This document shows, piece by piece, positions 6,216-59,948 of a stretch of 64,000 nucleotides of DNA. The notes under the pieces are model-generated. The model had not been told where the DNA came from. It saw only the letters and a list, made by a program, of their open reading frames with translations, and ran no database searches. Made by a program: the position numbers and the translations under genes. Position 1 is the first letter of the stretch, and each line of letters begins with the position of its first letter. The stretch is from an uncultured Candidatus Saccharibacteria bacterium (lineage in GTDB: Bacteria > Patescibacteriota > Minisyncoccia > UBA6257 > 1-14-0-10-44-23). The stretch lies in contig CAZXKC010000001.1 of assembly GCA_964641225.1 (NCBI GenBank), positions 23,268 to 87,267 of the forward strand. The letters are read 5' to 3'.

Positions 6216-6226
6216 ATTTTTTACAT

Positions 6227-10920: not shown

Positions 10921-11100
10921 GCCTAACCCTCGTGGGCAACTGCGAGGTATGGCGTTAGAAACTGTTCAGGTACATTAAGCTCGTCGTCAGAGCACCTGAA
11001 CAGTCGTATTCCGAAAGGGGTACGGGTGGCCGTAAGGTCATCGCTGGCGGCGAGCTTTGTGCTTCGCTGCTTGCAAAGGCATTACAAAACTGTTCAGGTA
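10921..11100 (+). ncRNA. Candidate structured RNA / leader element, copy A, directly upstream of the C5-methyltransferase start codon
   Basis: Multi-hairpin element with GNRA loops: ctcgtgg-GCAA-ctgcgag, cgtattcc-GAAA-ggggtacg and ggcc-GTAA-ggtc, plus a long-range 10-bp stem actgttcagg/cctgaacagt. A paralogous copy at 23766-23900 preserves every helix with compensatory changes. Confidence 0.4.
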
Positions 11101-18673: not shown

Positions 18674-19735
18674 ATGAAAGACGCGCGTGTTAATCCTTCC
18701 GAGGCAATAGAGATATTTTCTCTATTAAAAATAGAGATTGAGGGTTATACTAATTCAGTGTATACCAAGAACTTATATCTCAGTTCGGTGACTCGCAGCC
18801 TTGTCATGCTTACTGATTATTTAAAGCTTTCCTCTTCGATATCGTTAACAGATGCGAATAAGCTTAGCGAAGATTTTTTTTGTGGTTTATTGAATCTTAT
18901 TTTTGGATACAATCTCCAGAACTTAAATTCCGGTAAGCAGAATTATCCCGCAATTGATCTTGGGGATAAAGACAGAAAACTTTCAGTGCAAGTTACTATT
19001 GATAATTCGAGCGAAAAAATCAAAAAAACACTTTCGATTTTTGATGCAAATAATGTTGGAAAAGAATACCAGCGTGTTATTGTGTTTATCGCGGGATATA
19101 AGCAGAAACGTTACAGCGTTGAATTTACAAGTTCGAACATAAATTTTTCAAAAGGTGATGATATTCTAGATCTGAATGATCTAGTTAAATCGATCGCAGC
19201 AAGCGATACTAAAAAAATTTGCGAAATTGATAAATATCTAGAGAAGGAGCTTGTTTCAAAAATTCAAGGATCCAATATTGATCCTACGCGTTTGCTGGAT
19301 GAAGATATTCGAGATATCTTAGGGGCAATATCGGATTTTATTGAGAATAAAAATGAAAAAGTCATTCACAATGAAACTGTTATCGTGCGAGATGAAAATT
19401 TTATTGAAAGAAAAAACGAATTAAATAATATATCGGAAATATTGTTCAATAACGAGATAACGCCCAGCCTAATTTATTCAGAGCAGGTCAAAAATTTTCT
19501 AATTAATCCTATCAATAAAAATCACTTAGCAAAATATCTGTCAATAACTCATAGGATCCAAGTCGATTACAAACGAGGGATGGCGGATCGAAAAATTGAA
19601 GGCGTCGAGTTCGTATTTAGAAAAATTTTCGAAGGTTTGACTGGGCAATATAATAATCGTCATTTAGACAGCACAAAAATCCTTATTGTGCTTCATAATA
19701 TGTATTTTAATTGCGATATCGGGCTGAATCCTTAG
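18674..19735 (+). CDS. Putative effector component of an ABC-three-component (ABC-3C) system, possibly SMEK-domain type
   Basis: 353 aa, AT-rich. First gene of a tightly packed three-gene operon. Domain assignment is from recollection of operon architecture and is tentative. Confidence 0.45.
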   Translation: MKDARVNPSEAIEIFSLLKIEIEGYTNSVYTKNLYLSSVTRSLVMLTDYLKLSSSISLTDANKLSEDFFCGLLNLIFGYNLQNLNSGKQNYPAIDLGDKDRKLSVQVTIDNSSEKIKKTLSIFDANNVGKEYQRVIVFIAGYKQKRYSVEFTSSNINFSKGDDILDLNDLVKSIAASDTKKICEIDKYLEKELVSKIQGSNIDPTRLLDEDIRDILGAISDFIENKNEKVIHNETVIVRDENFIERKNELNNISEILFNNEITPSLIYSEQVKNFLINPINKNHLAKYLSITHRIQVDYKRGMADRKIEGVEFVFRKIFEGLTGQYNNRHLDSTKILIVLHNMYFNCDIGLNP

Positions 19736-19739
19736 TTTT

Positions 19740-19976
19740 ATGCTCAAGCCGACAAAATATACTAATCTTCAAACCTCAGTAGTCTCTCTGGCAGCAGAGA
19801 TTTTGAAGATATTTTCTCATAACAAAGTTTTGCAGTATGATGATCTTTTCAGAAAAATCATTGATAGGAAAGGCAAAGAAGCGAAGGAGAACTTTCTTCT
19901 CGCTCTTAATTTCTTATTTTTGTTAGGCAAAATCGAGTATTACCAAAAGGGTGATTTATTTGAATACCGAAAATGA
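19740..19976 (+). CDS. ABC-3C middle component (small ~78-aa protein)
   Basis: Small ORF sandwiched between the effector and the ATPase. Its stop overlaps the next start in an ATGA junction. Confidence 0.45.
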   Translation: MLKPTKYTNLQTSVVSLAAEILKIFSHNKVLQYDDLFRKIIDRKGKEAKENFLLALNFLFLLGKIEYYQKGDLFEYRK

Positions 19977-21739
19977 AGATTAAGAAAATTTATTCAAACA
20001 ACATAGCAATGCGCCCCATTTTATTTAATGAGGGTTTTTGTGTAGTGTATGGCGATGTTGAAAAGCGCAATGATAGAAACGAACATAATCTTGGCAAGAC
20101 TTCATTGGTGCATTTGATCGATTTTTTGCTTTTAAAAAAGGGCGGGGAAAAGCACAACATTTTTAATAAATATAAAAATAAATTTTCTGGATGGATATTT
20201 TTCATTGAACTTGATTTGGGCAACAGTCAGTATTTAACTATAAAAAGAGGGGTAGATAAATCGAGCGAGGTTTCTTTCAAATCGCATAGTAATTCTAACC
20301 AAGATTTTTCCACAGAGACTAGCTGGGATCGCAAAGATACTAAGCTTTATGCAAAAAAAGAAGAAAATTCTGTAGCGATTTTAGAAGAATATTTAAATTT
20401 TGATGTCGCGGCAGATTATGGGTATAGACATTTTTTGGCATATCTCCTAAGAACACAATATGATTACGTAGATGTTTTTAAGATGAACCAATTTGAAGGT
20501 AAGGACGTTGACTGGAAACCCCACCTTTTTAGTCTTCTGGGGTATTCCGATCAGAATGTATTAAAAAAATATCGAATTGATATTGAAATCGGCAACATCA
20601 GAAATATTTTAAAAACAATTGTTGGGGGATCTGATTTTATAAATCAGACATATACGATAAAGGCTGCTATCGCTGAAAGAGAGAAAGAGAAGAAGCAAGC
20701 GCAAGATAGTTTAGATAAATTTGATTTCTATATGAGAGAGGCGAAGCTCAACAAGGAGTTAATTGAAGAAATCGAATCTGGCATATCAAGATTCAACTCT
20801 GAAAGATATAGGATTGAATACGAAATCAATAAAATTAAAGTTTCTTTAGAAAATGGCCCCACTTTTTCATTGGAAGAAATAAAAAAGGTGTTTGATGAAA
20901 CTAAGCTATATTTTCCTGATGATCTTAAGAAGGGTTATCAAGAAGTTATCGAATTTAACACTAATCTTTCCGCTGAGCGATCCAAGTATCTGAAGGAGAT
21001 GCTAAAGAACAATTTAGATTATTTGTCGGAGATTAAAGCAAAGCTCGAAGATCTTAACAAAAACAGGCAGCAGGTTCTGGCTGTTTTAAGAGAGGGCGAT
21101 ACTTTCAAAAAGTATAAGGCATTGCAAGAAAACATCGGCAAGATTAATGAACAAATTCATCAGTATGGAGAAAAATTAAAGAGTCTCGACACTGCCGAAA
21201 ATTATAACCAGAAAAAATCTCTTTTAAGAGATGAGTCGAAGCAAGCTGCAAAGTTAGTCAAGGAAACTATTGATCAGGGAAGTGAAATTTTTGATTCTAT
21301 AAAACAGCTGTTTACGGAAATTTATAAAGATACTATGGAAAACACTGCCGTGCTAGTCGTTCGACCAAACTCAGAGGGTAATCCAGAATTCGAAGCAAAG
21401 ACCTTAGGCGAAGATCCTGATCAATTGACCGGTAAAAGCGAAGGATACACATCTACGAAAGTACAATGCGCAGCTTTTGTTCTAGCCATTTTAGCCGTCT
21501 ATTCTTCTTTGGGTAAAAGATTTTTTAAATTCGCCTATTATGATGGCTTATTCGAGGGATGGGGCGATAATCCGAAAATTAAATTTATCGAGACTATAAG
21601 AGATTTTTCTGATAAGTATGATATCCAATACATCGTTAGTATGATTAAAAGTGATGTACCCGTAGGTTTTGAGTTTAATGAAGGAGAAGAAATAGCAAAA
21701 TTAGATACCGAGCATACTCTCTTTGGTATTAATTTTTAA
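19973..21739 (+). CDS. ABC-3C system ABC-type ATPase with a long coiled-coil insertion (SMC/Rad50-like architecture, DUF2326-like)
   Basis: Degenerate N-terminal P-loop (NLGKTSLVHL), a ~250-aa E/K-rich coiled-coil middle, and a C-terminal segment with a Walker-B-like hhhhDG motif (KFAYYDGLFEGW). Confidence 0.55.
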   Translation: MKIKKIYSNNIAMRPILFNEGFCVVYGDVEKRNDRNEHNLGKTSLVHLIDFLLLKKGGEKHNIFNKYKNKFSGWIFFIELDLGNSQYLTIKRGVDKSSEVSFKSHSNSNQDFSTETSWDRKDTKLYAKKEENSVAILEEYLNFDVAADYGYRHFLAYLLRTQYDYVDVFKMNQFEGKDVDWKPHLFSLLGYSDQNVLKKYRIDIEIGNIRNILKTIVGGSDFINQTYTIKAAIAEREKEKKQAQDSLDKFDFYMREAKLNKELIEEIESGISRFNSERYRIEYEINKIKVSLENGPTFSLEEIKKVFDETKLYFPDDLKKGYQEVIEFNTNLSAERSKYLKEMLKNNLDYLSEIKAKLEDLNKNRQQVLAVLREGDTFKKYKALQENIGKINEQIHQYGEKLKSLDTAENYNQKKSLLRDESKQAAKLVKETIDQGSEIFDSIKQLFTEIYKDTMENTAVLVVRPNSEGNPEFEAKTLGEDPDQLTGKSEGYTSTKVQCAAFVLAILAVYSSLGKRFFKFAYYDGLFEGWGDNPKIKFIETIRDFSDKYDIQYIVSMIKSDVPVGFEFNEGEEIAKLDTEHTLFGINF

Positions 21740-21768: not shown

Positions 21769-23121
21769 TTATGCCTGGATTCGCATGCAGATCAACTTGT
21801 CCTTGACCTCGATCTTGCTTTTGATGCAGGCAATAATCTCCCTCTTTTCGTCCTTTGTTCCGTTAAGAAGGGTATGCTTTACGTAGTTTCGGACATCGGC
21901 ATCGCACGTTGCCCGATCAAATTCAGTTTCACGGCCAAGCACCGTGTAGCTGAACTTTTTATAATGGTTGATTTCTTTCTCAATTTTTTCTTTGATCGCA
22001 ATTTCGTCTACGTCAATTTTATCAATCAGGCGGACAAGCTGCTGCGCTAGATCCTCCTCGCGGATCGGTTTCTGTTTACAGTAGCGGTCACGCGATTTGG
22101 TGCAGTGATAGTAGACATATCGATTCTGGCCACCATCTTTAAGCTTTTTGAATTTTTCCTCTGCTGTTATCCCTGACTCGCAGCCACCGCAATAAAACAA
22201 GCGGGTAAAGTTAAATTCATTCGTGCCAGGGTGCCGCCGTGCTGGCATAAGCATGTTAGCCCTCGCTTTTAGGTAGAGATCTTTATCAATAATCGGATCA
22301 TGCGCTCCCTTATACCATTTGCCGCTTCCAACAGGGTATTCGAACTCTCCGTAGTAGAAGGTATCTTGGAGAATTCTGAAAATCCCGCTCAATGCAATCC
22401 TTTTGCCGGATCGAGTCGTAATATTTTTTTCTTGCGTTAGCCAAGTGTATAAATCCCTGCCACTCGCATTTTCGTAAGCCACCTTCTCAAACATCTCCTT
22501 TACTATCGGTCCACGAATCGGATCAATCGTCATTTTCTTTTGACCCTTATCCGCAAACTTATCGTGCAGATACCCAATAGGTGGCAATCCTGGCCGCCAC
22601 CCCATTTCGCACTTTGCTCGTAGTCCTCGCTTCACATTTTCACCTTTATGGTCATTTTCCAATTTTGCCTGACTGCACAGAATCATAAGCAAGAATTTTT
22701 CGTTCGGTGAATTCGTAAATCTTTGGCCATGAGTTCTGATATCAACTAGAGCTTTTTGGTCCATCAGATCAACGATACTGCCAAGGTCGCCCGCATTTCT
22801 GCTAATACGAGATGGATCCCACGCGATAATACCGTTGAACATACCCTTGCGGATATCAACGATCATCTGTTGGAATACAGGTCGTTGTCCTGACTCTTTT
22901 GCCGAATGAGATTCGCGGCGCACCTCGGCAACCTCGATACCTTCGCGCGCTGCCATCGCTAACATTTCGTTGATCTGCGAATCAATGGAGAGAGCCTGTA
23001 ATTCGTCCTGTTCGCTAGATTTTCTGGCATACAGGCAATACCTGACGTTTATTTGAGGTTGTTCCTTCCTTTGGACGCCAACTCCCGGCACATCTTTTAA
23101 TTGTGTATTTTCCATATACAC
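21769..23121 (-). CDS. Large serine recombinase (paralog of the 30660-32258 gene)
   Basis: YARKSSEQDELQALSIDSQ catalytic motif. Shares FYYGEFEYP and YYHCTK motifs with the third recombinase. Confidence 0.85.
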   Translation of the reverse strand: MYMENTQLKDVPGVGVQRKEQPQINVRYCLYARKSSEQDELQALSIDSQINEMLAMAAREGIEVAEVRRESHSAKESGQRPVFQQMIVDIRKGMFNGIIAWDPSRISRNAGDLGSIVDLMDQKALVDIRTHGQRFTNSPNEKFLLMILCSQAKLENDHKGENVKRGLRAKCEMGWRPGLPPIGYLHDKFADKGQKKMTIDPIRGPIVKEMFEKVAYENASGRDLYTWLTQEKNITTRSGKRIALSGIFRILQDTFYYGEFEYPVGSGKWYKGAHDPIIDKDLYLKARANMLMPARRHPGTNEFNFTRLFYCGGCESGITAEEKFKKLKDGGQNRYVYYHCTKSRDRYCKQKPIREEDLAQQLVRLIDKIDVDEIAIKEKIEKEINHYKKFSYTVLGRETEFDRATCDADVRNYVKHTLLNGTKDEKREIIACIKSKIEVKDKLICMRIQA

Positions 23122-23765: not shown

Positions 23766-23900
23766 CAGCCTAACCCGCGTGGGCAACCACGCGGTATGGC
23801 TCAAAATCGTTGAACACAAAAAGCTCCTAGTCAGAGCGTGTTCAACGTCGTACGCCGAAAGGTGTACGGGCCCGCAAGGGTATCTGGCTGGGGGCTTTTT
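23766..23900 (+). ncRNA. Candidate structured RNA / leader element, copy B, upstream of the zinc-ribbon membrane protein gene
   Basis: Same architecture as copy A: cgcgtgg-GCAA-ccacgcg, long-range stem cgttgaacac/gtgttcaacg, cgtacgcc-GAAA-ggtgtacg and gccc-GCAA-gggt. Ends in ggctgggggcttttt. Confidence 0.4.
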
Positions 23901-24459: not shown

Positions 24460-24947
24460 TCTTCCGTTTCTGAGTCTTCCGCAATCTTGTCATCCCCAAG
24501 CTCTGACCAATCTTCATTCTTAGCGGTACCCATAATACTGGCGAATGCTTTGACTGCTCGCTGAATCTCTTCTAGTCGTTCAGGAGACAGCGGTTTATTC
24601 AGGCGTACCAACTCATCAAATCGTTCGCGCTCTTCCTTTGCCAGTGGTTCCATGAAGATTGAACGCACCGGGATATACCGCTTGTCGTTATGGATCAAGA
24701 AAAACTTAATCGCAGCCATATTGCCGTCTTTAACATTCTTCAGGAGAGCCGACTCAGCCATGTCGACCCAGACGGAACGGCCAACGAGAATTGCATCATC
24801 AACTCGCACCTTAAAGAGCTCATCCTCCTTCATCCACCTATATACGGTGGTACGTCCAATACCTGATTTCTTGCAGGCGTAGTTGATCTGCGGAGCCTCC
24901 TCAAGTATTTCAAGAAACTTGAGTTTCTCCTTTGCGCTCTTTGCCAT
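24456..24947 (-). CDS. HTH DNA-binding protein resembling a phage terminase small subunit / Psq-type HTH
   Basis: LKFLEILEEAPQINYACKKSGIGRTTVYRWMKEDELF helix-turn-helix at the N-terminus, with an acidic C-terminal tail. Confidence 0.45.
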   Translation of the reverse strand: MAKSAKEKLKFLEILEEAPQINYACKKSGIGRTTVYRWMKEDELFKVRVDDAILVGRSVWVDMAESALLKNVKDGNMAAIKFFLIHNDKRYIPVRSIFMEPLAKEERERFDELVRLNKPLSPERLEEIQRAVKAFASIMGTAKNEDWSELGDDKIAEDSETED

Positions 24948-26265
24948 ATATCTTCACACGCTTCTTACCTGAATACTTCTCCCAACGGTGCATGATGACC
25001 TCTGCGTACGTTGGTGATTTCTCCATGATGAAGCAACGACGCCCGATCATGTTGGAGGCAATTAAAGTGCTACCGCTACCACCAAACGGCTCTAAGACGA
25101 GCTGACCCCGCTTGGTAAGGACCTTGATATATGGGATGAGAATCTCAGTGGGCTTTACGCCAAAGATGATAGCCTGGCCCGATGACTTCTCATCTGCGGC
25201 ATTGAAATCTACGAAGTCAGTTGGGCAGTACTTCTTACCTTTGCCATACGCTTCCCAGTGCGGACTGCCTGAGATGGCAAAAAGCGCCGTCTGATATTCG
25301 TTCATCACCAGCTCGTTTTCGTCCTGTAGATTGAGTCCTGAATGAGGTTCGCTGGTACCGACCATAGCGATGTCGTGTTTGGAGAAGAGCTTGTGCTTGC
25401 CGGAGTAGCCCTGATTTCGATTAGGCAGCCGCCAAACAATCATGTTGCGGACTTTCCAGTGTTTCTCGATCTCACCCCAGATCTCTCTAAGGTTCTTCCA
25501 GTTCTCGTAACAGATGATGGAGAAATCTTTAGCCTGCACCTTCGCCACGTTATTCATCCAGAGAGTCGTGAAGTCTTCAGGTAAGACATCAGTTTCTAGA
25601 TAACGGCGGTTTTTCTTGGTACCAAAACCAACCGTCGGCTTACCGTTACGGGTTTTACCTTTTAAGTAATCGAGGCGGTACGGAGGATCAGTCATGACCA
25701 TATCCGCCTTCTCATTACCCATGAGTGCGAGCATGTCAGCCTCTATGGTGCTGTCACCGACCATGAGGCGAGAACCATCCAGATCGTATATGTCACCCTT
25801 CTGTGCGGCGATGCTGGTGATGTTAAGCTTGTCGAGCTCCTCCTGCAGATCAAATTCCTGTTCAACTTTCTCTTCTTCAAAGATTCCATCCAGTTCTTCA
25901 GAACCAAAGCCGACGTCAGCCAAGAATGACTCATCAAACTCAGCAAGTAACTCAAGGTCAAATTCACCCTGGTTTTTGTTGAGACGAAGATTGAGCTCCT
26001 TCTCCTTGGCGAGGTCAGGAATATTCACGAACACTACGGGTACCTCTGCGTATCCAAGCTCTTGGAGAACAGAGAGTCGAAAGTTTCCGCCGATCAAGAT
26101 ATTCTCTCGACCCTTGCCGTTATTCACGATGAGTGGGTCAACGACGCCAAAGCGTTTAATGCTCTCCTGTAAGCCAGCAGCCTGCTCTTTGTTGTGCTTA
26201 CGTGGATTGTACTCGGCTGGCTTCAACTGCGAGAGCGGGACGTACACTACTTCTAATTTTTGCAT
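24910..26265 (-). CDS. ParB-like nuclease domain fused to a DNA N6-adenine/N4-cytosine methyltransferase (phage-type orphan MTase)
   Basis: N-terminal ParB box (LKPAEYNPRKH...GNFRL). Methyltransferase motif IV DPPY (MVMTDPPYRLDY) and motif I FGGSGSTLIAS. Confidence 0.8.
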   Translation of the reverse strand: MQKLEVVYVPLSQLKPAEYNPRKHNKEQAAGLQESIKRFGVVDPLIVNNGKGRENILIGGNFRLSVLQELGYAEVPVVFVNIPDLAKEKELNLRLNKNQGEFDLELLAEFDESFLADVGFGSEELDGIFEEEKVEQEFDLQEELDKLNITSIAAQKGDIYDLDGSRLMVGDSTIEADMLALMGNEKADMVMTDPPYRLDYLKGKTRNGKPTVGFGTKKNRRYLETDVLPEDFTTLWMNNVAKVQAKDFSIICYENWKNLREIWGEIEKHWKVRNMIVWRLPNRNQGYSGKHKLFSKHDIAMVGTSEPHSGLNLQDENELVMNEYQTALFAISGSPHWEAYGKGKKYCPTDFVDFNAADEKSSGQAIIFGVKPTEILIPYIKVLTKRGQLVLEPFGGSGSTLIASNMIGRRCFIMEKSPTYAEVIMHRWEKYSGKKRVKIYGKERKGETQVS

Positions 26266-30659: not shown

Positions 30660-32258
30660 CTATACGGGGAGCCTAGTGACAAAATTCGAGTAACTTTTAG
30701 CTAAGACCCTTTTATCCATGGGCTTCTTAAGAGGTTCTAACCTTGCGTGTATTCGTTTTACCTCTTTAGCCGCCTTTTCGATCAATAAAAGTGGCGCAGC
30801 CACATGAATGCTCAATTTATTATCTTTTAGTAAGAGGTTCGAACCTAGTACGAAAACAATATTCCGTTTTTCCCTAAGTGTTGCGCTCGCGTAGCGTTTC
30901 GGGGCGCTCTCTGCAAAAGTGAAAACCTGCTCAGCTTTTTCTAGCCAGTTGTCTACGCGGCCATCAGTATCTTTTAATAATTCCTGTAAACGAACCTTCT
31001 CTTTTGAGAATTCCGATTTTTTACGCGCAAACTCCTCTTCGTTGAGCTCTCCCGCAGCTCGCATATCTATCAATGCATCTATCCGTTGTACGCAGGCGTT
31101 GTAATCGCGCTGGAGATTAGCCAGAATCTTATTCCGGTCCTCGACTTCGAACCTGCTTTCAGTCTTTAATTGATCGATTGCCCATTCTTTGAACTCTGGT
31201 GGGATTTCTATGGTGCCCAAAATGGCATTAATTTGAGACTCTAAGTCTTCTTGTCGGATATTCTTTTGTGAGCAAGCACGGTTTTTCTTTTTGGTGCAGT
31301 GGTAATAGGTGTACTGATGAACATTGCCATTTTTTTGGGTCTTAATCTTTTTTTCGGCGGTAATCATGGAATTGCACTCTGCGCAATGAATGAGGCCAGT
31401 ATAAGCGAACTCTTTAGTGTGTGGGCGCTGCTTGCCCTTGTCGCCGAGGATAACTTGAATTTTTTCGTATTCATCTTCAGTGATCATTGCCTCGTGTTGC
31501 CCCTTGTACCAATTACCACTATTTTTTGGAAATTCAAATGAGCCGTAATAAAAAGGGTCATTAAACATTCTGTAAATGTTACTCTCCGAAATTTTATTGC
31601 CAAGTCTGGAATGAAGTCCCCATTCGCTCGTGGCGATTTTTAAAATTTTAGGGGCGGTGTATTGGCCGGTCAACATTAAATCGAACATCTTACGAACCAA
31701 GTCGAATTTTTCAGGGTCTTTGATAATCTCTTTTTCGCCCTTTCGTTTAAAGGGATGATTCATGTATCCAAGGCTCGCAGGGGCAGGGTACCAACCTCGT
31801 TCTGCCTTTGCTCGTAATCCTCGTTTAGTATTAACACTTAAATCACGAATAAACTGGTTCGCCATACCAAACTCAACGCTCATCATTAGAACATTGTCGC
31901 CAGGATAATAACTTCGCTCAAATGTCTGGATGTGTTGGATAGAGCCTTGCTGCAACATCCAGCTGATCCGCCCGCCGTCTATAGGGTTGCGTGCTAACCG
32001 GTCGAGCTTCCAGCAGATAATGCCTTGTGCTTTGCCGCCTTGGACCGCATTAAGCATTTCATCGAAAACAGGCCGCCCAGGCTCTTTGGCGGATTGAGCT
32101 TCTGAATAGACCTTAAGAATCTCTAAGTCGCGTTGTTTGGCTAGTCTTGTCAGCTCATCGATTTGAGAATCGATTGAGGCGACTTGCTTATCCTCGCTCT
32201 CTGACGATTTCCGAGCGTATAGAAAGTACTTGATATCGCCTTGTTTAACAGGTGCCAT
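30660..32258 (-). CDS. Large serine recombinase
   Basis: YARKSSESEDKQVASIDSQ catalytic motif, a recombinase domain, zinc-ribbon cysteines and a coiled-coil C-terminus. Confidence 0.85.
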   Translation of the reverse strand: MAPVKQGDIKYFLYARKSSESEDKQVASIDSQIDELTRLAKQRDLEILKVYSEAQSAKEPGRPVFDEMLNAVQGGKAQGIICWKLDRLARNPIDGGRISWMLQQGSIQHIQTFERSYYPGDNVLMMSVEFGMANQFIRDLSVNTKRGLRAKAERGWYPAPASLGYMNHPFKRKGEKEIIKDPEKFDLVRKMFDLMLTGQYTAPKILKIATSEWGLHSRLGNKISESNIYRMFNDPFYYGSFEFPKNSGNWYKGQHEAMITEDEYEKIQVILGDKGKQRPHTKEFAYTGLIHCAECNSMITAEKKIKTQKNGNVHQYTYYHCTKKKNRACSQKNIRQEDLESQINAILGTIEIPPEFKEWAIDQLKTESRFEVEDRNKILANLQRDYNACVQRIDALIDMRAAGELNEEEFARKKSEFSKEKVRLQELLKDTDGRVDNWLEKAEQVFTFAESAPKRYASATLREKRNIVFVLGSNLLLKDNKLSIHVAAPLLLIEKAAKEVKRIHARLEPLKKPMDKRVLAKSYSNFVTRLPV

Positions 32259-42000: not shown

Positions 42001-43649
42001 ACGGAAGCTTTCAGATAGGTCAGCGAACTGCCAACGACCAGCCTTGGTACGGTAACATGGATGACTTTGCTATCTTTAGTAGAGCTCTATCCGAAGAAGA
42101 AGTCGCTGATTTATATTACGGCACCGAGGGAGTCCCCATCCAAGATCTCAACTATACCTACGATGCAAACGGAAATATCACGAAGATAATAGACAGTTCA
42201 GAGACTGATACCTACAAAGTTACTGATTACACGTACGATACACTGAACAGGCTCACGAACGCTTCAAGCTCATTAGCTGCAACTTCAACGAACTACAATT
42301 ACACGTATGTGTATAACGCCATCGGCAATATTACAAGTTCGACGCCGAGCGGGGTATATCTGTATCCAACCACCACGAGCGGATACGTAAATCCTCATGG
42401 AGCAGTGAGTATCGGAGGAGCTACATACGCATATGACAATAACGGAAACTTAACGAGTGATGGAACTTGGACACACAGTTGGGATTACAGGAACAGACTC
42501 ACGCAGTCTTCTTCTAGCGTGAAGTTAATTTCGTACAATTACGATGCAAGTAATAGCCGGGTTAAAATGGTAACTCCAAGTTCAACGACAATTATTCCGT
42601 TCCCAACATATTCAACTGAAGCAGGAAGTGCGGTAAAATATATCTCTGCGAATGGTCAGTTGATTGCGACGATCAGAGGGAGCACAACAACAGCTGCGGT
42701 GTATTATACGCATCCGGATCACTTGGGGAGTCAGGAGAAGACGACGGATTCGGATACGACTGTAAGCGAGCTGTCGAGTTATGATCCCTTTGGTGCGGTA
42801 AGACTGAATGAGTCAACGGTTCACGACCGCCGATCGTTTTTGGGCAAAGATCTGGATTTAGATACTGGCTTATCGCAACTCGAAGCACGTTTTTATAAAG
42901 GAGCAGTAGGAAGATTTATTAGTCAGGATCCGATGTTTTGGGAACTGAAACAAAATTTACAGGATCCGCAAAGTTTGAATTCGTATGGTTATGCCGGTAA
43001 TAATCCAATAAGGTTTAGTGACCCAACAGGAAGAGATTACCTCGAACTTTCATTCTCAGGCACATATTTTTTTGTTAGCGGTGGAGCAGGCTTACGTCTT
43101 GATCAGAATGGCATTGACTGGTTTGTTTTCGGCGGCCCAGCTTTAGCGACGCCAGGGGGTTACTTGGAAGGTCGATATTCAAATGGTAATTTAACTCATC
43201 AATCTGAAACAACCGTGTCGCGAACTGGAAAAGCTGCCGCCGGTCTTGGATTTTCGATATCTAGCGAAGGTGAGTACGATTCGAGTGATCCTCTCGGTGG
43301 CGGGAGGAATCGTACTACTGAGTCCGCTTTCATATTAGGGGGCGGAGTATCGATTTCGCAAGATTATAGTTATTCGCATAAGATGAAGATTTGGGGTAAT
43401 ACATTTGAAGAAGGTCCATATATTGGCCCCTTCAGTACCCAGGAATATAAAAACCGTGATACTATATCTCGTCAGGGGAATACAACGCTTTCCAGTTATA
43501 GGGCACCTGCATCTCAATCATCAGGTAGTCAAAGGACAACTGGTTCCGCGTCCTATCAGCAACAGCAAATTAATATTATTACGCAGCTTATCGGATTGTA
43601 TCAGCAAGTTTTGAATATACAAACGGGGCAACCGGGAGGTAAAAGATAA
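36018..43649 (+). CDS. Giant secreted RHS/YD-repeat polymorphic toxin-like protein (2543 aa) with a Tc-toxin-like architecture
   Basis: In order along the protein:
- Signal-peptide-like N-terminus.
- SpvB-like motif (PGVDQTTGALTYTYPLKMPPGRNGMQPDLSLSY).
- Repeated FG-GAP/integrin-like DxNxDGxxD loops (DVNSDGLPDIL, DINGDGRIDLV, DLTGDGLPDFI, DYNGDGMVDIL).
- Two ~195-aa LamG-like modules.
- YD repeats (YTYDxxGN).
- RHS core ending DPxG (FSDPTGRDY).
- A ~200-aa C-terminal tip. Confidence 0.85.
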   Translation: MKSYAQTPSTFRRFLTASLIFVLTLAPIGPALAQQASSTPPAQSSEDFSSSSTADPDHPILSGSLSDVAEQSSEISAESEEEISEGNEEEPPQSSMAMSGSGDISGGADGSPNTIKQVIPGVDQTTGALTYTYPLKMPPGRNGMQPDLSLSYNSLSADSNSIVGYGWSLNIPYIKRINKDGVNKLYSENYFESSLSGELVPYPTSSTSIFRSKVDNGEFLNYTFASNTWTVTDKSGKTYTFGNSSSTQLVDDASSTRIFAWMLNEVRDLNGNYMTYEYYKAYGQIYPNKIYYTQYGTSTAPFEIEFSRESRSDGYVKYDMGFAASSTYRIKEITAKHNGTWTKKYTLGYATSTTGIRSLLDTITESGFSDASATTTLPATDFDYQSNLPTGVSTLFETQTIYDVTCPANINTTQGVIISDVNSDGLPDILEANNSETATYLNTGIFDGTSTWATSTMFNSPLLFSNASSTDLGVRLADINGDGRIDLVKRVNSSSTIYFNTSSGWSLHTSTSTWVIPEDTANSDGSDNGVRLVDLTGDGLPDFIQTTTGGGSNTHVWVNNGSNWVSDSGWDTFPQGILQDHPMFVDLNNDGLMDDIQSSVSGVNWHHWAYLNNGKGGWVAASQYDPAAMYYFNYNGNDWGTREADINGDGFSDLLQGKNLLGTAAHVNTGLGWSTSSWSGLEFVDNGSHDNGYRFADYNGDGMVDILNCKTGGSADIFLKNQQLKPDLLTRIKLPTGGSTAVAYQPTTKYVTGASSTLLNANLPFVIDTVSTITKSDNVSPTSTQTFSYEGGQQYFAGALDRKMAGFAKVVSTDTASNTTSVFYHQGDSSSSSTGEYNDDVFKIGKVYRTEVADSSGNIYSKTINKWDEATSTTSSSTFVNLAQTISFSYDGDADHKEKAESYTYSTSTSNLLTKTQWGEVTGSNDGTFSDTGSDKFITTYTYASSTASSTTSSTVELYTTSFYSDSSLIAYWRLEGGLSDSKGSSNGTNHSVTFATSTGKFNQGGHFASGSYFNGSITQPTSSYSVSAWLSHSSASNDNNEGIWDTQNPVQAYWETGMTFAYNPSIGKFRVYHGNGSWQDSNDVGSTFEDGLMHHVVVTWTGTTSTFYLDGSSIGSTSHSRAMNNDGSYQIGQRTTNDQPWYGNMDDIAIFSRALTSGEVHDIYSIFVSSPSNFSLLASESTVDASSTKVKESRVYYDSLALGSVSKGNSTKQESWKSSSDYASSTKVYNSYGLVTSATDPRGKTTTYSYDTFNLYVATSTNPLSQTTGYLYDYSLGKPKQITDANGLVSQTVFDGVDRVTEEKQPDLASPSSLVTKATYAYTYQSPVGLMVKQSQYLDGSNIVDRYTYTDGFGRTIQTRQETEDSFAVSDIVYNNIDKVLKESLPYFSSGASSTTATAVATLYTNYTYDSLYRVSTTTNSVGTTTMAYDDWKTTIIDPMGTPKSLYKDAYGNLKQVDETIGTSTVSTAYTYNYLQNLTGITDALGNIRSFTYDGLGRRLTAQDLHVSGDGTYGSYTYTYDDAGNLTQQVDPTSQTVNFTYDDLSRPLTEDYTGASSTEITYTYDSCTYGVGRLCSTSSTDVLATSTYNALGLVATSTKSISGTAYSTTYSYDRVGNVLETINPDVSRVKNTYNAGGFLETIQRKESTDGDYIDVVTDFDYGPHGKVTEIDYENGAITENTYDSSKQYRLLRKLTTVPAGESMMRSFSMIEPDVELLESKEGSTSTLEMSSSTPEEASSILEESTSTVFEATSTSEQAEATSTMESSESAQSAESATPTEEEQQEEASSTPTSFLPRYTGLTLRDVFSILAEVFTIKTALASGPIELYDTSLYNDGNLLNYYRLEGNVNDSKGSSNGTNHSVTFSTSTGMFGQGGHFASGTYFNGSTTQPTSTYSISVWLSHSSASNDNNEAIWDTQHPTEWETGITTAYNPYLGKFRVYHGNGSWQDSSNVGTYFEDGVMHHLVITWTGSVTTFYLDGSNIGSGSYTRAVYNDGSFQIGQRTANDQPWYGNMDDFAIFSRALSEEEVADLYYGTEGVPIQDLNYTYDANGNITKIIDSSETDTYKVTDYTYDTLNRLTNASSSLAATSTNYNYTYVYNAIGNITSSTPSGVYLYPTTTSGYVNPHGAVSIGGATYAYDNNGNLTSDGTWTHSWDYRNRLTQSSSSVKLISYNYDASNSRVKMVTPSSTTIIPFPTYSTEAGSAVKYISANGQLIATIRGSTTTAAVYYTHPDHLGSQEKTTDSDTTVSELSSYDPFGAVRLNESTVHDRRSFLGKDLDLDTGLSQLEARFYKGAVGRFISQDPMFWELKQNLQDPQSLNSYGYAGNNPIRFSDPTGRDYLELSFSGTYFFVSGGAGLRLDQNGIDWFVFGGPALATPGGYLEGRYSNGNLTHQSETTVSRTGKAAAGLGFSISSEGEYDSSDPLGGGRNRTTESAFILGGGVSISQDYSYSHKMKIWGNTFEEGPYIGPFSTQEYKNRDTISRQGNTTLSSYRAPASQSSGSQRTTGSASYQQQQINIITQLIGLYQQVLNIQTGQPGGKR
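38922..39512 (+). repeat. Internal duplicated LamG-like module, copy 1 (the partner is at 41533-42119)
   Basis: ~80% amino-acid identity between the two segments (SSNGTNHSVTF.STSTG.F.QGGHFASG.YFNGS.TQPTS.YS.S.WLSHSSASNDNNE.IWDTQ...GNMDD.AIFSRAL). Confidence 0.8.
41533..42119 (+). repeat. Internal duplicated LamG-like module, copy 2
   Basis: See copy 1. Confidence 0.8.
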
Positions 43650-43664
43650 AATAATTTTAAAGAC

Positions 43665-43916
43665 ATGAATATATTTTTCGCAATAGTTTTGGCGGCGTTA
43701 GGACTAACCTTCATACTTATGAGAAAGAAAATTGCTAAGCCTTGGTTTAAGGCGACTGCGTTTTCTATGAAAAAATGGGCGCCAGGATCATTGGGTTCAA
43801 GATTTTTCGGAATTGAAAATCCGGAGAGTAAGGGGTGGATAGCTTTTTTGAGTTGGGGTTTAGTCTTCGTTGGAATTGTACTTTTGTTTGCTGCTTATAC
43901 TTTATTGCGAGAATAA
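43665..43916 (+). CDS. Small two-TM protein (83 aa), candidate immunity protein for the upstream toxin tip
   Basis: Starts 16 nt after the RHS gene stop. Two hydrophobic helices. Confidence 0.4.
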   Translation: MNIFFAIVLAALGLTFILMRKKIAKPWFKATAFSMKKWAPGSLGSRFFGIENPESKGWIAFLSWGLVFVGIVLLFAAYTLLRE

Positions 43917-44028
43917 TATTTTGACAATTCATCGTAAGCAAAGTTGGGCAGAATGTAATCGGGAAAAGTAAAAATATCTTTTGCGGATACTATGAGTAGC
44001 TTGATAGGCCTTCGATCATCTGATCAGG

Positions 44029-44058
44029 CAGGTTCTAATCTCCTTCATCAGCCGGAGC
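44029..44058 (+). promoter_or_regulatory. Copy 1 of a 30-nt upstream motif caggttctaatctccttcatcagccggagc, with a degenerate second half-repeat at 44063-44086
   Basis: Near-identical 30-mers at 44029, 45021 and 46686. Each lies 35-90 nt upstream of a start codon. Confidence 0.45.
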
Positions 44059-44116
44059 CAAAGTTCTAATTTCCTTCACTGCGGGGTATACTTTGGGCAT
44101 ATTTCCTCTGCCCAGC

Positions 44117-44980
44117 ATGAACAAGAAAACTCTTAAAAATGGCTTCTTTCTCCCCGACATTGGACTTGGCACAGGAGGCCCTAGCTCTAAAATTGTTAAT
44201 GAAGCATCTTGGAAACAGGCCATTCACGAAGCATTAGAAATTGGCTACCAGCACATTGACTGCGCTCCGACGTATTCAGACGGCCTTGCCGAGAAACTGG
44301 TAGGCGAAATTATCCAAAACACAGACTTATCAAAACTGGTTATATCAACAAAAGTCTCCCCAAAAGATCTCGCCCGTAAGGACTTCATTAATTCCGTAGA
44401 GAGCAGTTTGAAACGACTTAAAATAAATTCTATCGATTTACTTTACATTCACGCGTCCAATCCAAATATCCCCCTAAAAGAAACCATGAAGGCGCTAGAT
44501 GAATGCGTCACAAGAGGTCTTGCAAAGCATATTGCGGTTAGCAACTTCAACACCACGCTCCTCAAAGAGGCGCAGTCCCTTACGAACAACAAAATAGTAG
44601 CAAATCAAATTGAATACAACTTATCTACGCGCGAACAAAGTCATTGTGAGGGGTGCGATAATATGGAGTCAGAAATATTACCCTACTGCCAAGCGAACGA
44701 TATTCTTGTAGTCGCATATAGGCCAGTTGATAGAGGTGCGTTATTAGAGCCTAACCCTCTCCTTGATGAACTCACAAAAAAATATAACAAGACAAGAGCT
44801 CAGCTTGCCATTAATTGGCTCATATCTCAGAAAAATGTCGTTACTATTCCAAGGTCAGACAAGAAAGAGCATCTTGTCGAAAACTTCGAAGCTGGCGGCT
44901 GGTATATGGAAAAAACAGATGTCGAGAGGTTGCGCCGAGAATATCCTCAACAGAAAGTAACTCAATATCGATACTATTAG
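44117..44980 (+). CDS. Aldo/keto reductase
   Basis: AKR motifs IDCAPTYSDG and YIHASNP, with the catalytic Tyr, Lys and His pattern. Confidence 0.8.
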   Translation: MNKKTLKNGFFLPDIGLGTGGPSSKIVNEASWKQAIHEALEIGYQHIDCAPTYSDGLAEKLVGEIIQNTDLSKLVISTKVSPKDLARKDFINSVESSLKRLKINSIDLLYIHASNPNIPLKETMKALDECVTRGLAKHIAVSNFNTTLLKEAQSLTNNKIVANQIEYNLSTREQSHCEGCDNMESEILPYCQANDILVVAYRPVDRGALLEPNPLLDELTKKYNKTRAQLAINWLISQKNVVTIPRSDKKEHLVENFEAGGWYMEKTDVERLRREYPQQKVTQYRYY

Positions 44981-45020
44981 CCCACTTTTCAGGAGTAATG
45001 ATCTATTTTAGATACTCAAG

Positions 45021-45050
45021 CAGGTTCTAATCTCCTTCATCGGCCGGAGC
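45021..45050 (+). promoter_or_regulatory. Copy 2 of the 30-nt upstream motif
   Basis: caggttctaatctccttcatcggccggagc, preceded by atactcaag as in copy 3. Confidence 0.45.
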
Positions 45051-45109
45051 ACATAGCATTTCATGGGATTTCTTGGGATAATGTGAGGGTGGCAAAGGGC
45101 GCTTATAAA

Positions 45110-45385
45110 ATGAAATCCAAGGTGCTGGTATACCCAGGTATGGCCGCCTGGAGATTTTTGGTTCTACCAAAGAAAGAGGGTGCGGAAATAAAGGAGAAAT
45201 ATGGAAAGTCAGCTAAGGGTTGGGGTTCGTTGCCTGTTTCCGCTAGCATCGGAAAGACAGAATGGAAGACATCTATTTTCCCAGATAAAAAATCTGGAAC
45301 CTATTTACTTCCCCTCAAGGCAAAGATACGAAAAGCAGAAGGTATTGATGACGATGATAGTGTTCAATTTATTATTAAGTTATAA
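45110..45385 (+). CDS. DUF1905-family small protein
   Basis: MKSKVLVYPGMAAWRFLVLPKK...KGWGSLPVSASIGKTEWKTSIF matches the DUF1905 pattern. Confidence 0.5.
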   Translation: MKSKVLVYPGMAAWRFLVLPKKEGAEIKEKYGKSAKGWGSLPVSASIGKTEWKTSIFPDKKSGTYLLPLKAKIRKAEGIDDDDSVQFIIKL

Positions 45386-45393
45386 AGCGAAAT

Positions 45394-45612
45394 ATGACTA
45401 AAACATTTACATGCAAGGAGTTGGGCGGCATTTGTGACGAAAAGTTTTCTGGAGAAACATTCATGGATGTTGTGAATAAGGGCATGGGACATATGATGTC
45501 TGATGCAGCGCACAAGGAAAAGATTATGAATATGGAGCAGTCGACTGGAGAAACGAAAGAGCAATGGATGGAACGGATGCAAAAGGAGTTCGATGCAAGG
45601 TCTGCTGACTAA
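45394..45612 (+). CDS. DUF1059-family small metal-binding protein
   Basis: MTKTFTCKELGGICDEKFSGETFMDV...GMGHMMSDAAH. Confidence 0.55.
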   Translation: MTKTFTCKELGGICDEKFSGETFMDVVNKGMGHMMSDAAHKEKIMNMEQSTGETKEQWMERMQKEFDARSAD

Positions 45613-45624
45613 ATTACCACCAAT

Positions 45625-45996
45625 ATGACAACCTTCTATTTTCTTTCATTCGCATATCTAGTCATTTCTTTTATCCTTGGTGCCGTGTGGCATGTCGTAC
45701 TGTTTAAGGAGTACTATAGAAAACTTGCTATATATTCCAACATTGAAAAGCCGCGATTTGCTTTCGGTTTTTCTGCGATGCTACTTCAAGCATTTGTGTT
45801 CGCGTATTTATATCCCATAATCAACAATCTTTGGCTGTTTGGTGTAGGACTCTTTCTTATCCTCCTAAGTTTTATGGTGTTTGCAGAAGCAGGCAAACAA
45901 AATACAACCTCTTTGTCTGGTTTCGTACTAATTCAGACGGCATTTTGTGCAATCCAAGCCATCCTAGTTACTTTGGCTTTTGGGCTGATTGGATAG
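45625..45996 (+). CDS. Four-TM membrane protein (123 aa), hypothetical
   Basis: Hydrophobic helices throughout. Confidence 0.45.
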   Translation: MTTFYFLSFAYLVISFILGAVWHVVLFKEYYRKLAIYSNIEKPRFAFGFSAMLLQAFVFAYLYPIINNLWLFGVGLFLILLSFMVFAEAGKQNTTSLSGFVLIQTAFCAIQAILVTLAFGLIG

Positions 45997-46150
45997 AGCG
46001 TAACCGTCTCTTGTTGAGTTATATACCAGGAACGTAGACCCTATTCGCGATGAAGAAGGTTCGAAGATTAGAAGCCCAGGGGAGCAGATTTGACATAAAG
46101 CACTATGTGTGTTATTTTTTATTTGTCCCCAAACCACGAAAGGAGATGGG

Positions 46151-46594
46151 ATGAACAAGCAAAGCGCAGCGATGGAGATCGACCCGCAGATGGTGGACGC
46201 GGCTTTCCGAGGCTGCCTCTACACCGAGGACGAGCTGCGGACGCTCCCGAAGAACGAAAAGGGTGTCCCCAAGGGCACCGTCCTCGTCGAGGGCGTCGCG
46301 CACTCGTTCGGCCTGCATCCTCAACGTCTCGAGGCCACACGAGAGCAGGTGACGGAGTGGCTCAAGCTGCTCCCGCATCAGTTCCGCACGAAGGCGTGCG
46401 GTGGTGGCGACGGCTGGTCGTTCCTCAACGCCTGCGTGCAGGAGGACGGCAACCAGTGGACCGGTGAGCACCGCGGCGTGGAGCAGCTCTTCTGCCTCGG
46501 CATGGGTCTCGGTCTCGCCAAGCTCATTGCTCCCCGTGAGACGTGGAGCATCATGCCCGGCGGCATGCCCTACTACTCCATCTCGGTGAAGTAG
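46151..46594 (+). CDS. Hypothetical protein (147 aa) encoded by a strongly GC-rich (~65%) segment; likely horizontally acquired
   Basis: AAAGGAG RBS 7 nt upstream of the ATG at 46151. GC-rich third codon positions in this frame. A GC-rich hairpin terminator at 46620-46670. The overlapping minus-strand ORFs are GC artefacts. Confidence 0.55.
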   Translation: MNKQSAAMEIDPQMVDAAFRGCLYTEDELRTLPKNEKGVPKGTVLVEGVAHSFGLHPQRLEATREQVTEWLKLLPHQFRTKACGGGDGWSFLNACVQEDGNQWTGEHRGVEQLFCLGMGLGLAKLIAPRETWSIMPGGMPYYSISVK

Positions 46595-46685
46595 ACCTCG
46601 CCGCCAAGTTCCTCGCAAGAGCCCGACAGAACGTGACCCGATGGTCGCGACATACTGTCGGGCTCACGTTTTTTAAATACTCAAA

Positions 46686-46715
46686 CAGGTTCTAATCTCC
46701 CTCATCAGCCGGAGC
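46686..46715 (+). promoter_or_regulatory. Copy 3 of the 30-nt upstream motif
   Basis: caggttctaatctccctcatcagccggagc, directly after the terminator of the GC-rich gene. Confidence 0.45.
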
Positions 46716-46752
46716 AATGTTGAACGAAGGGTTACGAAAATACTAATCCTGA

Positions 46753-47106
46753 GTGTATACTTTAAGCATGTGGATCAGGAAACGCTATTTATACTTCGGC
46801 ATAGCATTTTCACTACCTTTTCTTATCGCAAACGTGCTAGTTGCGATGCAAGTGAAATTTTTCCTCTCATTCCTTCGTCCATTTGGGCAGACCACGAATT
46901 ACGAGCAAATCATTGTGCTCGTTCTTGTCGCATTCGTGGGTATCGGTGGTTTTGTATCACTGCTGCCGATTTTAAAAGAAAAACGTTTCTATATAGTCAA
47001 TGCTATTGTCGGTGTGGTGCTTGTTGTGTTCTCGCTTTTTGCCGGGTACGGACTAGGTGTCGACGTTTATCACTGTGACGTTCTGCGAATCCCGAATTGC
47101 GATTAG
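46753..47106 (+). CDS. Membrane protein (117 aa), hypothetical
   Basis: Three or four hydrophobic helices. Confidence 0.45.
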   Translation: MYTLSMWIRKRYLYFGIAFSLPFLIANVLVAMQVKFFLSFLRPFGQTTNYEQIIVLVLVAFVGIGGFVSLLPILKEKRFYIVNAIVGVVLVVFSLFAGYGLGVDVYHCDVLRIPNCD

Positions 47107-57658: not shown

Positions 57659-57799
57659 AGGCTGTGAATCGGTCTTGATTAGGTGTTTTTATAATTTAAT
57701 AAGAGCAGTTCTTTGCTTTTATTGCATTTTTGCTTTAAAATATATTTCCGCGAAATTTGGTCGCTACTATTCTCAAACCCAGGAGAGATTGCTTTGGAA

Positions 57800-58198
57800 A
57801 TGGGCGTTTTGGAGACGTTGACGCTCGAGTTCATGGACAGCGCGCTGGCACAGGAGGCGGATTTTCTCGACAACCTCGAGAACATCATCGCTTTTCTGTT
57901 GAACAGGCGTATCACTGAGCTGCCCAAGGATTATTGTGGCGGCACTGTTGCCGCCGAGTTCTACGCTGCGCGTCTGCGGCCGGAGCTGATGAAGACGGGT
58001 GTTTCGCCTCGGACTATGCAGGTCAGCCTGCAGAGGTGGATCATCAAGATCAAGGATCTGCGTAGTCGGGCGCAGACCGAGGAGCCGGCTCGCGCATCTG
58101 AGTTGGCCTCGACCGTGACGGCGGCGCTGCCTGAATCGCCTACGGGTCAGCTTGATCGGTTCGTCGACGGGCGGGCCAACGAGTTCATGAAGCGGTAG
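57800..58198 (+). CDS. Hypothetical protein (132 aa) in a GC-elevated (~60%) segment; possible horizontal acquisition
   Basis: AGGAGAG RBS 12 nt upstream. Followed by a GC-rich hairpin. The overlapping minus-strand ORF is rejected. Confidence 0.45.
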   Translation: MGVLETLTLEFMDSALAQEADFLDNLENIIAFLLNRRITELPKDYCGGTVAAEFYAARLRPELMKTGVSPRTMQVSLQRWIIKIKDLRSRAQTEEPARASELASTVTAALPESPTGQLDRFVDGRANEFMKR

Positions 58199-59468: not shown

Positions 59469-59948
59469 CTACGCGGCTAGACGACTGAGTGATCGACGGC
59501 GAATCTCGTTGCGGACCAAGATCGCTATCTTCCTGACCTCGTTTGCTCCTCTCGGACTATCCGGTTGCTCGAGGGTGTCTTTCTCCGCCGTCTCTGCCTC
59601 AACTATCTCCTCGATTAGGTTGTTGATGTCTTCGAAGAACAGATCAGTTGCGACGCCATTTTCTTCTTCGACGGCTTCTTTTCTTAGGCTTTCTATCTCC
59701 TCGGCGCTGAAAAACTTCGCCGGGTTGAGCTGTCCTCGCTCAATAGCATCTCTGACTTTGAGTCTCCCGCAGACTGTTTCGACGCCACACTCTTTGAGGT
59801 GCTCGGCCCAGTAGATCAGGTGAGTCAGCAGCGGTCCGCCCAAGACCAGGCCGATGACGCATAACAGGATTTCGTTTGGGGCAAAGCCGAACCAGGCGAA
59901 GATGATAATGTCCCAGATCAGCCAACAGATCCAACTGATCAGAGCCAC
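59469..59948 (-). CDS. Two-TM membrane protein with an acidic cytoplasmic tail, hypothetical
   Basis: ORF. A hairpin gccgcgtcaccccctgggtgacgcggc at 59436-59462 lies downstream on the minus strand. Confidence 0.4.
   Translation of the reverse strand: MALISWICWLIWDIIIFAWFGFAPNEILLCVIGLVLGGPLLTHLIYWAEHLKECGVETVCGRLKVRDAIERGQLNPAKFFSAEEIESLRKEAVEEENGVATDLFFEDINNLIEEIVEAETAEKDTLEQPDSPRGANEVRKIAILVRNEIRRRSLSRLAA

Follow-up and report, generated by a model that had tools for sequence, protein, structure and literature searches.

A GC-rich, moron-like single-gene cassette of probable phage ancestry in a Parcubacteria genome

The 64-kb stretch of contig CAZXKC010000001.1 analyzed here (64,000 nucleotides, the window) contains a 147-codon open reading frame (ORF) that stands out from its surroundings by an unusually high GC content. 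This gene is, with fair probability, a moron-like single-gene cassette that descends from phages and reached a Parcubacteria genome by horizontal acquisition. Such an acquisition is the most economical explanation, because the gene has a foreign composition, a patchy distribution and no conserved synteny. The cassette would consist of a promoter-like site, a ribosome binding site (RBS), the ORF and a hairpin terminator and would form a self-contained, monocistronic unit. We infer that the transfer was directed into the bacterial genome and that a phage or another mobile element served as the vehicle.

The ORF has a GC content of 64.4% (0.64, 0.43 and 0.858 at the first, second and third codon positions, GC1 to GC3) compared with a window mean of 44.9%, and it coincides with the 444-nt GC maximum of the window (z=4.1). 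GC3 in 65 other ORFs was 0.47 ± 0.08 with a maximum of 0.70, placing the GC-rich gene at z=4.9. The tetranucleotide distance to the window amounted to 0.748 for the 530-nt GC-rich segment versus 0.443 ± 0.053, which is the largest distance in the window. An earlier note on this DNA had described a GC-rich gene with a GC3 anomaly in a lower-GC background; the comparisons of GC3 and tetranucleotides with the window bear this out and identify the gene as the strongest composition outlier of the 64 kb. The adjoining genes have 39–43% GC and GC3 values of 0.38–0.47. In 100-nt profiles, the GC content rises sharply at about position 46148, at the start codon, and drops at about 46670, approximately 75 nt past the stop codon. 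The 3′ untranslated region (3′UTR) of the gene has 63% GC, the adjoining intergenic DNA 42–43%. A GC-rich 3′UTR including the terminator is as expected of an imported fragment.

The protein belongs to an established family of phage proteins. Scans of the 147-amino-acid (aa) sequence against Pfam, NCBIfam and PADLOC gave no match, and a Pfam scan of 36 aligned family members returned chance matches only. The earlier impression that no family could be recognized is correct for Pfam and NCBIfam, but the family exists as PHROG 26039. The corresponding hidden Markov model (HMM) matched residues 8–145 along profile positions 1–128 of 129 with E=1.2e-27, and all 36 aligned relatives matched PHROG 26039 and no other PHROG. 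The PHROG description contains neither a functional annotation nor Patescibacteria copies or their GC anomaly. A word-indexed search yielded 488 homologs, the best non-self one being 64% identical, and an HMM scan of 1.84 billion cluster representatives retrieved 1,854 family members (1,488 at E≤1e-10). Residues G48, R59, F78, G88, F91, L92, A94, C95, W103, H107, W132, G137, M139, P140 and Y141 are invariant in the alignment. The GGGDGW and MGLGLAKL motifs pointed out before are present and fall in the conserved blocks GGGWSFLNAC and CLGxGLGL; the family blocks in full are GGGWSFLNAC, QWTGxH, MEQLFCLGxGLGL and PRxMWxxLPGGMPYY. Related copies display dN/dS ratios (nonsynonymous to synonymous substitution rates) of 0.08–0.19, demonstrating a real protein-coding gene under purifying selection.

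Tailed phages, above all large and jumbo ones, and prophages are the native setting of the family. Among cultured phages, 19 of 50,697 records carry the gene. All of their hosts are proteobacterial and none of them is an actinophage; carriers include jumbo phages of Variovorax, Stenotrophomonas, Xanthomonas (XacN1), Caulobacter and Klebsiella as well as the Salmonella phage Arash. The copies are always annotated as hypothetical and are embedded in packed arrays of small ORFs. Relatives were found on 179 IMG/VR contigs, the longest of 497 kb and many above 100 kb; the metagenome and IMG/VR contigs used for comparison were the best 80. Copies in Bacteroidota reside in prophage-like DNA-modification modules that also contain an SNF2-methylase fusion, a C5-methylase and a PAPS-reductase-like gene. 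The excess of gene GC over flank GC averaged +0.005 (standard deviation about 0.03) across 84 viral loci, and GC3 followed the flanks closely (GC3 = −0.38 + 1.89 × flank GC, r=0.95). The family is thus at home in phages with GC contents anywhere between 25% and 69%. The window copy deviates from the viral regression line by z=+5.2: the GC3 expected at the window's 45% GC is 0.47, and on this line a GC3 of 0.86 is reached at about 65% genomic GC. This points to a GC-rich phage or another mobile element as the most likely donor. The gene may have arrived from this source directly or via another Patescibacteria genome, and an actinobacterial chromosome would not have been involved.

In cellular genomes the gene is distributed patchily. 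Seventy loci were detected in 185,579 species-representative genomes; about 40 of them belong to Patescibacteria and the remainder to Bacteroidota, Clostridia, Proteobacteria and others. The Patescibacteria carriers are mostly Saccharibacteria, but also include WWE3, Kuenen-, Magasanik-, Nomura-, Collier-, Woese- and Peregrinibacteria and Paceibacterota. A neighbor-joining tree placed the window gene in a group with phage-like contigs of 54–65% GC (L071/L079, L072/L078 and L102), the AT-rich viral contig L080 and the AT-rich Patescibacteria-type contigs L001, L002 and L073/L074, to which it is 52–58% identical. Four members of this group (L071, L072, L078 and L079) are phage-like small-ORF arrays of 54–61% GC, and a blastn search against cultured phages gave nothing useful on the host of the nearest phage-like contigs. 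AT-rich Patescibacteria-type contigs are also among the nearest relatives (L158–L160, L001 and L002). The best protein matches, P0002 (64%) and P0003 (59%), are encoded on contigs with flanks of 36–40% GC. P0002 itself is a GC spike (58% versus 40%) on a 713-bp contig and comes with its own promoter, RBS and terminator. Four loci labeled as Gamma- or Deltaproteobacteria metagenome-assembled genomes (MAGs; L015, L039, L073 and L074) have flanks of 35–41% GC, exhibit the Patescibacteria-type spike and group with the copies from Patescibacteria; mis-binning is possible.

Comparison of the neighborhoods suggests that the gene moves on its own. Across 75 cellular loci, no neighbor was shared by more than 3–4 loci. 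Patescibacteria pairs with unrelated flanks showed DNA homology restricted to the gene and up to about 100 nt downstream, with identities of 83% (L012/L026), 86% (L013/L029), 82% (L010/L018) and 72% (L008/L028). The only syntenic pair is L004/L007, which was evidently inherited vertically. The upstream neighbor of the window copy, a 123-aa membrane protein, is 70–84% conserved in many Patescibacteria, where different genes (TfoX_N, DHFR) follow downstream. Because this conserved neighbor precedes different genes elsewhere, the position of the cassette is not ancestral. A search for an empty site by means of the upstream neighbor gave no true empty site, the neighbor being widespread and followed by differing genes. 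Single-gene horizontal transfers and genomic islands have been reported for ultra-small Patescibacteria genomes (PMC12455944), and the window likewise harbors three serine recombinases and a low-GC island. That work does not report any gene family whose GC content consistently exceeds that of the genomes carrying it.

The cassette resembles the morons defined in HK97 and HK022, which carry their own promoter and terminator and differ in GC content from their neighbors (PMC3594210). Like phage morons, it is a single extra gene with deviant GC content (64.4% versus 39–43% in the neighboring genes) and horizontal spread. With regard to its signals, it has its own AAAGGAG RBS and a terminator-like hairpin, in line with the earlier note. 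Six T residues follow the hairpin, which has a folding energy of −32.7 kcal/mol (z −3.5) and escaped a simple terminator scanner because its loop is branched. Upstream, 33 nt 5′ of the ATG, lies a promoter-like site with a TG extension that agrees with the consensus at 10 of 12 positions, about two such sites being expected in the stretch by chance. Its location suggests that this site might drive the gene. In contrast to phage morons, which sit between conserved phage or prophage genes, the window cassette is flanked by cellular accessory genes and is not inserted between phage genes. Within phages, PHROG 26039 genes are not set off by a promoter and terminator but lie in packed small-ORF arrays.

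Several observations weigh against the reading of the gene as a horizontally acquired cassette of phage ancestry. The promoter is a consensus match only. Phage structural genes, an integrase and border repeats are all absent at the cassette borders; a search for insertion-scar repeats at the cassette gave only 9–12-mers at chance level, and flanking 9-nt inverted repeats did not exceed chance level either. A donor was not found, the nearest of 5.8 billion proteins being only 64% identical, and the window GC3 of 0.86 lies above that of all nearest viral relatives (0.64–0.80). Moreover, the GC spike occurs in nearly all Patescibacteria copies, some of which are separated by synonymous distances (dS) of 0.7–1.3, and this is awkward for a simple recent import.

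The spike is indeed a recurrent property of the Patescibacteria copies and extends over many Patescibacteria classes. The homolog exceeds its flanks in GC content in 37 of 39 Patescibacteria loci, on average by +0.102 and by up to +0.23, with GC3 values up to 0.89. The corresponding mean is +0.021 in other cellular loci, and the difference between Patescibacteria and viral loci is pronounced (Mann-Whitney p=1.5e-14). Profiles at 200-nt resolution confined the spike to the gene. The main Patescibacteria clade comprises about 30 genome loci that are mutual closest relatives at 65–93% aa identity, with few viral contigs interspersed; the nearest viral copies reach at most 72%. In 76 further metagenome contigs of this clade a GC excess was present in most cases (mean +0.086).

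These data raise the possibility, which we regard as tentative, that the gene is a long-term resident of the Patescibacteria pool moving as a single gene, and that a gene-specific force keeps its synonymous sites GC-rich, so that the GC content is no donor leftover. Such a force could be selection on the mRNA (stability or structure) or GC-biased gene conversion (gBGC) restricted to the only segment homologous between co-occurring genomes. A gBGC hypothesis for bacteria has been set out (PMC4450053). On this account the window copy might be one instance of a lineage-wide compositional phenomenon and not a fresh import, with GC3 reaching 0.89 in genomes of 37–48% GC; this, too, we consider possible but less than likely. 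Apart from the near-universal excess in Patescibacteria, its absence from viral loci, its confinement to the ORF and the mutual relatedness of the copies, several features argue for maintenance. Copies that both have a GC3 of about 0.8 can be separated by dS of 0.7–1.3. The highest values (GC3 0.85–0.89) occur in AT-rich contexts, whereas in GC-rich contexts the copies of this clade have no more than 0.6–0.8. In cassettes bearing a ribozyme-like element (see below), the spacer between stop codon and ribozyme has the GC content of the genome (0.40–0.54), while GC3 is 0.62–0.89. The window transcript folds better than its shuffled versions (z −3.7). Expression-linked codon bias was considered and rejected: ribosomal protein and housekeeping genes have GC3 values of 0.32–0.51, and since ribosomal protein genes lack a GC3 excess, ordinary codon bias of this type does not account for the spike.

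Acquisition followed by decay would mean that the Patescibacteria copies came from a very GC-rich pool and have been ameliorating since. It fits several observations that speak against maintenance. The vertically inherited L004/L007 copies have a GC3 of 0.58–0.63 versus 0.77–0.87 in sister copies, as decay predicts, and GC3 among Patescibacteria copies spreads from 0.32 to 0.89. The non-coding 3′UTR of the window copy is GC-rich as well. Parsimony-polarized synonymous changes comprised 40 from strong to weak pairs (S→W) versus 6 in the opposite direction (W→S), a count biased by GC-rich outgroups. The dS of the gene between L004 and L007 is 0.46 and not clearly below that of the flanking genes (0.5–1.1). 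Site patterns in trios and the S/S identity at four-fold sites are equally compatible with decay and with stationarity. Finally, gBGC of such magnitude is undocumented in bacteria.

The earlier note regarded transfer from a high-GC actinobacterial host to its epibiont as attractive, should the genome belong to such an epibiont. While horizontal acquisition stands as the best explanation, the actinobacterial source does not, and we regard it as very improbable. A GC3 of 0.86 would be compatible with an actinobacterial donor of about 65% GC, the phage-like contig L072 (61% GC) encodes a Ku protein whose only cultured-phage homologs are mycobacteriophage proteins (30–32% identity), and among plasmids there is a single, distant actinobacterial match from Euzebya (39%). 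The Ku similarity is too weak to indicate a host. The premise of an actinobacterial epibiont finds no support in the affiliation of the genome: GatB is 72% identical to proteins named as Ca. Harrisonbacteria and 83% identical to unnamed proteins, its other named matches belong to Parcubacteria, Paceibacterota and Patescibacteria, and the best matches of other window genes are Patescibacteria loci. Judged by these proteins, the genome is that of an ultra-small member of the Patescibacteria (Candidate Phyla Radiation, CPR), namely a Ca. Harrisonbacteria-like Parcubacterium and not a Saccharibacterium. No actinobacterial host is known for this lineage. None of the 70 genome loci is actinobacterial and none of the 19 phage records is an actinophage, in spite of the heavy sampling of actinophages, and the closest homologs are located in AT-rich Patescibacteria-type contigs. 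In addition, the same spike is found in WWE3, Kuenen-, Magasanik-, Nomura- and Collierbacteria, for which actinobacterial hosts are not known. The actinobacterial version fails because the best matches fall outside high-GC taxa, an outcome that the earlier note had itself named as speaking against it.

An artefact, either a chimeric MAG contig or a contaminating GC-rich fragment, is suggested by the shortness of the segment (about 520 bp) and the abrupt change in composition but is hardly credible, as a promoter-like site and an RBS, both host-like and AT-rich, directly abut the ORF and more than 100 independent contigs, among them the closed genome CP006914 (L024), show this architecture. The Logan assembly of the sister run SRR14271336 is 100% identical to window positions 43562–46276, i.e. 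over 2.7 kb; because this independent assembly spans the AT-to-GC junction, the upstream junction is not a binning or assembly chimera. The Logan contig (L322, SRR14271336_16887) stops 126 nt inside the GC-rich gene, possibly because coverage falls in GC-rich sequence or because strains differ at the cassette. An integron gene cassette was also considered and rejected. Neighboring genes are only 9–18 nt apart, too close for an attC site, and the only recombinases in the window are of the serine type and lie no closer than 14 kb. On its 3′ side the gene has a plain stem with a T-run; a dedicated attC model was not run.

Some Patescibacteria relatives of the gene are associated with ribozyme-like RNA elements. 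Alignment of L013 and L029 revealed a conserved core of the form CUGAUGAG-hairpin-CGAAA downstream of the gene. A descriptor for type III hammerheads matched nine times in 5.6 Mb of sequence (loci and window), and eight of the nine matches lie 95–124 nt past the stop codon of the gene on the same strand (Table 1). Covariation was observed in all three stems. The box UGUCUGCUUGUCAU in front of the ribozyme is conserved and appears to pair with the start of the 3′UTR spacer, with a compensatory change in L006. The Rfam model Hammerhead_3 (RF00008) aligned over its full length to L298 and L029 at 34–35 bits (E about 1e-5) and so fell short of the gathering score, 48.5. RAGATH-10-like RNAs upstream of the gene in hammerhead-bearing cassettes scored 26–33 bits in L029 and L297/L298 compared with a gathering score of 41.2; the upstream sequence of L013 resembles this element by eye in a pairwise alignment and gave no Rfam match. 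As far as the hammerhead- and RAGATH-flanked genes are described where PMC11061315 cites them, these relatives share with them a type III hammerhead on the 3′ side and, in some cases, a RAGATH-10-like RNA on the 5′ side. The window copy has neither element: an Rfam scan at gathering scores, a scan of positions 45900–47000 at E≤10 and the descriptor search were all empty. Among the papers searched, none connects hammerheads with Patescibacteria.

Table 1. Features of the cassette, ribozyme-like elements in related loci and other features of the window. Positions without a locus name refer to the window.
Feature	Position	Strand	Basis or remark
Promoter-like TTGACA, 17-nt spacer, TG-extended TATTTT	46090–46118	+	consensus match, 10 of 12 positions
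Shine-Dalgarno AAAGGAG	46139–46145	+	5 nt 5′ of the ATG, direct reading of the sequence
Compositionally foreign segment (ORF, 3′UTR and hairpin)	46148–46669		100-nt GC profiles, tetranucleotide distance
Coding sequence, 147 aa, PHROG 26039 member	46151–46594	+	ATG 46151, TAG 46592–46594
Intrinsic-terminator-like hairpin (46619–46665) and T6 (46670–46675)	46619–46675	+	fold, inverted repeats I1 and I10
Hammerhead-like	L029 6506–6560	same as gene	descriptor
Hammerhead-like	L013 6422–6475	same as gene	descriptor
Hammerhead-like	L005 2447–2495	same as gene	descriptor
Hammerhead-like	L006 6188–6236	same as gene	descriptor
Hammerhead-like	L022 4607–4663	same as gene	descriptor
Hammerhead-like	L281 1460–1512	same as gene	descriptor
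Hammerhead-like	L298 1095–1149	same as gene	descriptor
Hammerhead-like	L303 4694–4742	same as gene	descriptor
RAGATH-10-like RNA, directly upstream of gene	L029 5856–5932		Rfam, sub-threshold
RAGATH-10-like RNA, directly upstream of gene	L298 522–599		Rfam, sub-threshold
RAGATH-10-like RNA, directly upstream of gene	L297 1923–2000		Rfam, sub-threshold
Conserved gene pair, 61–72-aa protein followed by 123–126-aa membrane protein	45394–45996
Conserved pair, as above	L319 3792–4381
Conserved pair, as above	L320 3805–4372
Conserved pair, as above	L321 2434–3001
GatB	3247–4707
tRNA-Asn	6226–6301
Large serine recombinase	6287–7768	−	Resolvase, Recombinase, Zn_ribbon_recom
Large serine recombinase	21769–23121	−	Resolvase, Recombinase, Zn_ribbon_recom
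Large serine recombinase	30660–32258	−	Resolvase, Recombinase, Zn_ribbon_recom
Low-GC island	18800–21700		31–37% GC
ParB N-terminal domain fused to N6/N4 DNA methylase	24910–26265	−
Giant ORF, 2,543 aa	36018–43649	+
LOOT RNA motif	10920–11042	+	Rfam RF03000
LOOT RNA motif	23767–23882	+	Rfam RF03000
Moderately GC-rich ORF	705–1202	+	no Pfam match
Moderately GC-rich ORF	57713–58198	+	no Pfam match
Moderately GC-rich ORF	59469–59948	−	no Pfam match

The GC-rich gene lies in a series of co-oriented small accessory genes. Upstream are genes for an aldo-keto reductase, DUF1905, DUF1059 and a membrane protein, and downstream follow genes for a membrane protein, OmdA, DUF4177, YidD, a glyoxalase, a PhnB-like protein and a metallo-β-lactamase (MBL)-fold protein, so that small membrane-protein genes flank the cassette on both sides. 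Phage genes are not found next to it, and no prophage is evident. The upstream membrane-protein gene forms a conserved pair with the short gene preceding it; in other genomes this pair is located beside ArsR-type helix-turn-helix or DsbA/AhpC genes or in front of TfoX_N/DHFR.

The window as a whole is rich in mobile DNA, as seen from the serine recombinases, an island of 33% GC and the ParB-methylase fusion. The first of the three recombinase genes ends inside or beside the tRNA-Asn gene; this position, together with the recombinases, suggests integrated elements. The low-GC island (compared with 45% for the window) has the second-largest tetranucleotide distance in the window and encodes a 588-aa protein with a C-terminal DUF2326. 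Both copies of the LOOT RNA motif score 78–79 bits, above the gathering score, and the second overlaps the start of an ORF at 23779. The three moderately GC-rich ORFs have GC3 values of 0.62–0.70 and could represent further foreign genes or shadow ORFs on the wrong strand.

With regard to the function of the protein, an AlphaFold2 model predicts a compact alpha/beta fold (predicted local distance difference test score, pLDDT, 92.6; predicted template modeling score, pTM, 0.87). A Foldseek search of this model against PDB gave no significant match and no solved relative, and a fold search of BFVD gave one significant match, an unnamed viral protein. Inspection of ten longer family members for domain fusions revealed eight without any domain and two (P0504 and P0441, 239–252 aa) with C-terminal YadA_head repeats as in adhesins and phage fibers, which are either genuine but rare fusions or errors of gene calling. 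A conserved neighbor gene was found neither in the 75 cellular loci nor in viral loci, and the protein, lacking a constant partner gene in cells and phages alike, probably acts alone. As a speculative suggestion, it might be a nucleic-acid- or nucleotide-binding accessory factor that phages use in early or DNA-modification modules. This suggestion draws on the phage gene context, a weak resemblance to winged-helix DNA-binding domains (MarR/ArsR-like), the invariant Cys/His/Arg/Trp pattern and a Gly-rich loop. In Patescibacteria the gene is preserved by purifying selection, perhaps because it interferes with phages.

Taken alone, the window copy is an ordinary horizontally acquired gene without a characterized function, and its analysis corrects an attractive but unsupported story of host-to-symbiont transfer. 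It also gives an uncharacterized family that is common in jumbo phages a place in cells: ultra-small bacteria keep the gene by itself, apparently express it from its own signals and hold it under strong purifying selection, which offers a good entry point to the role of the protein. The candidate self-cleaving ribozymes in related 3′UTRs link the family to the poorly understood ribozyme-associated genes. If the GC3 excess is maintained, the family would provide an unusually clean natural test of gBGC or of selection on synonymous sites in bacteria.

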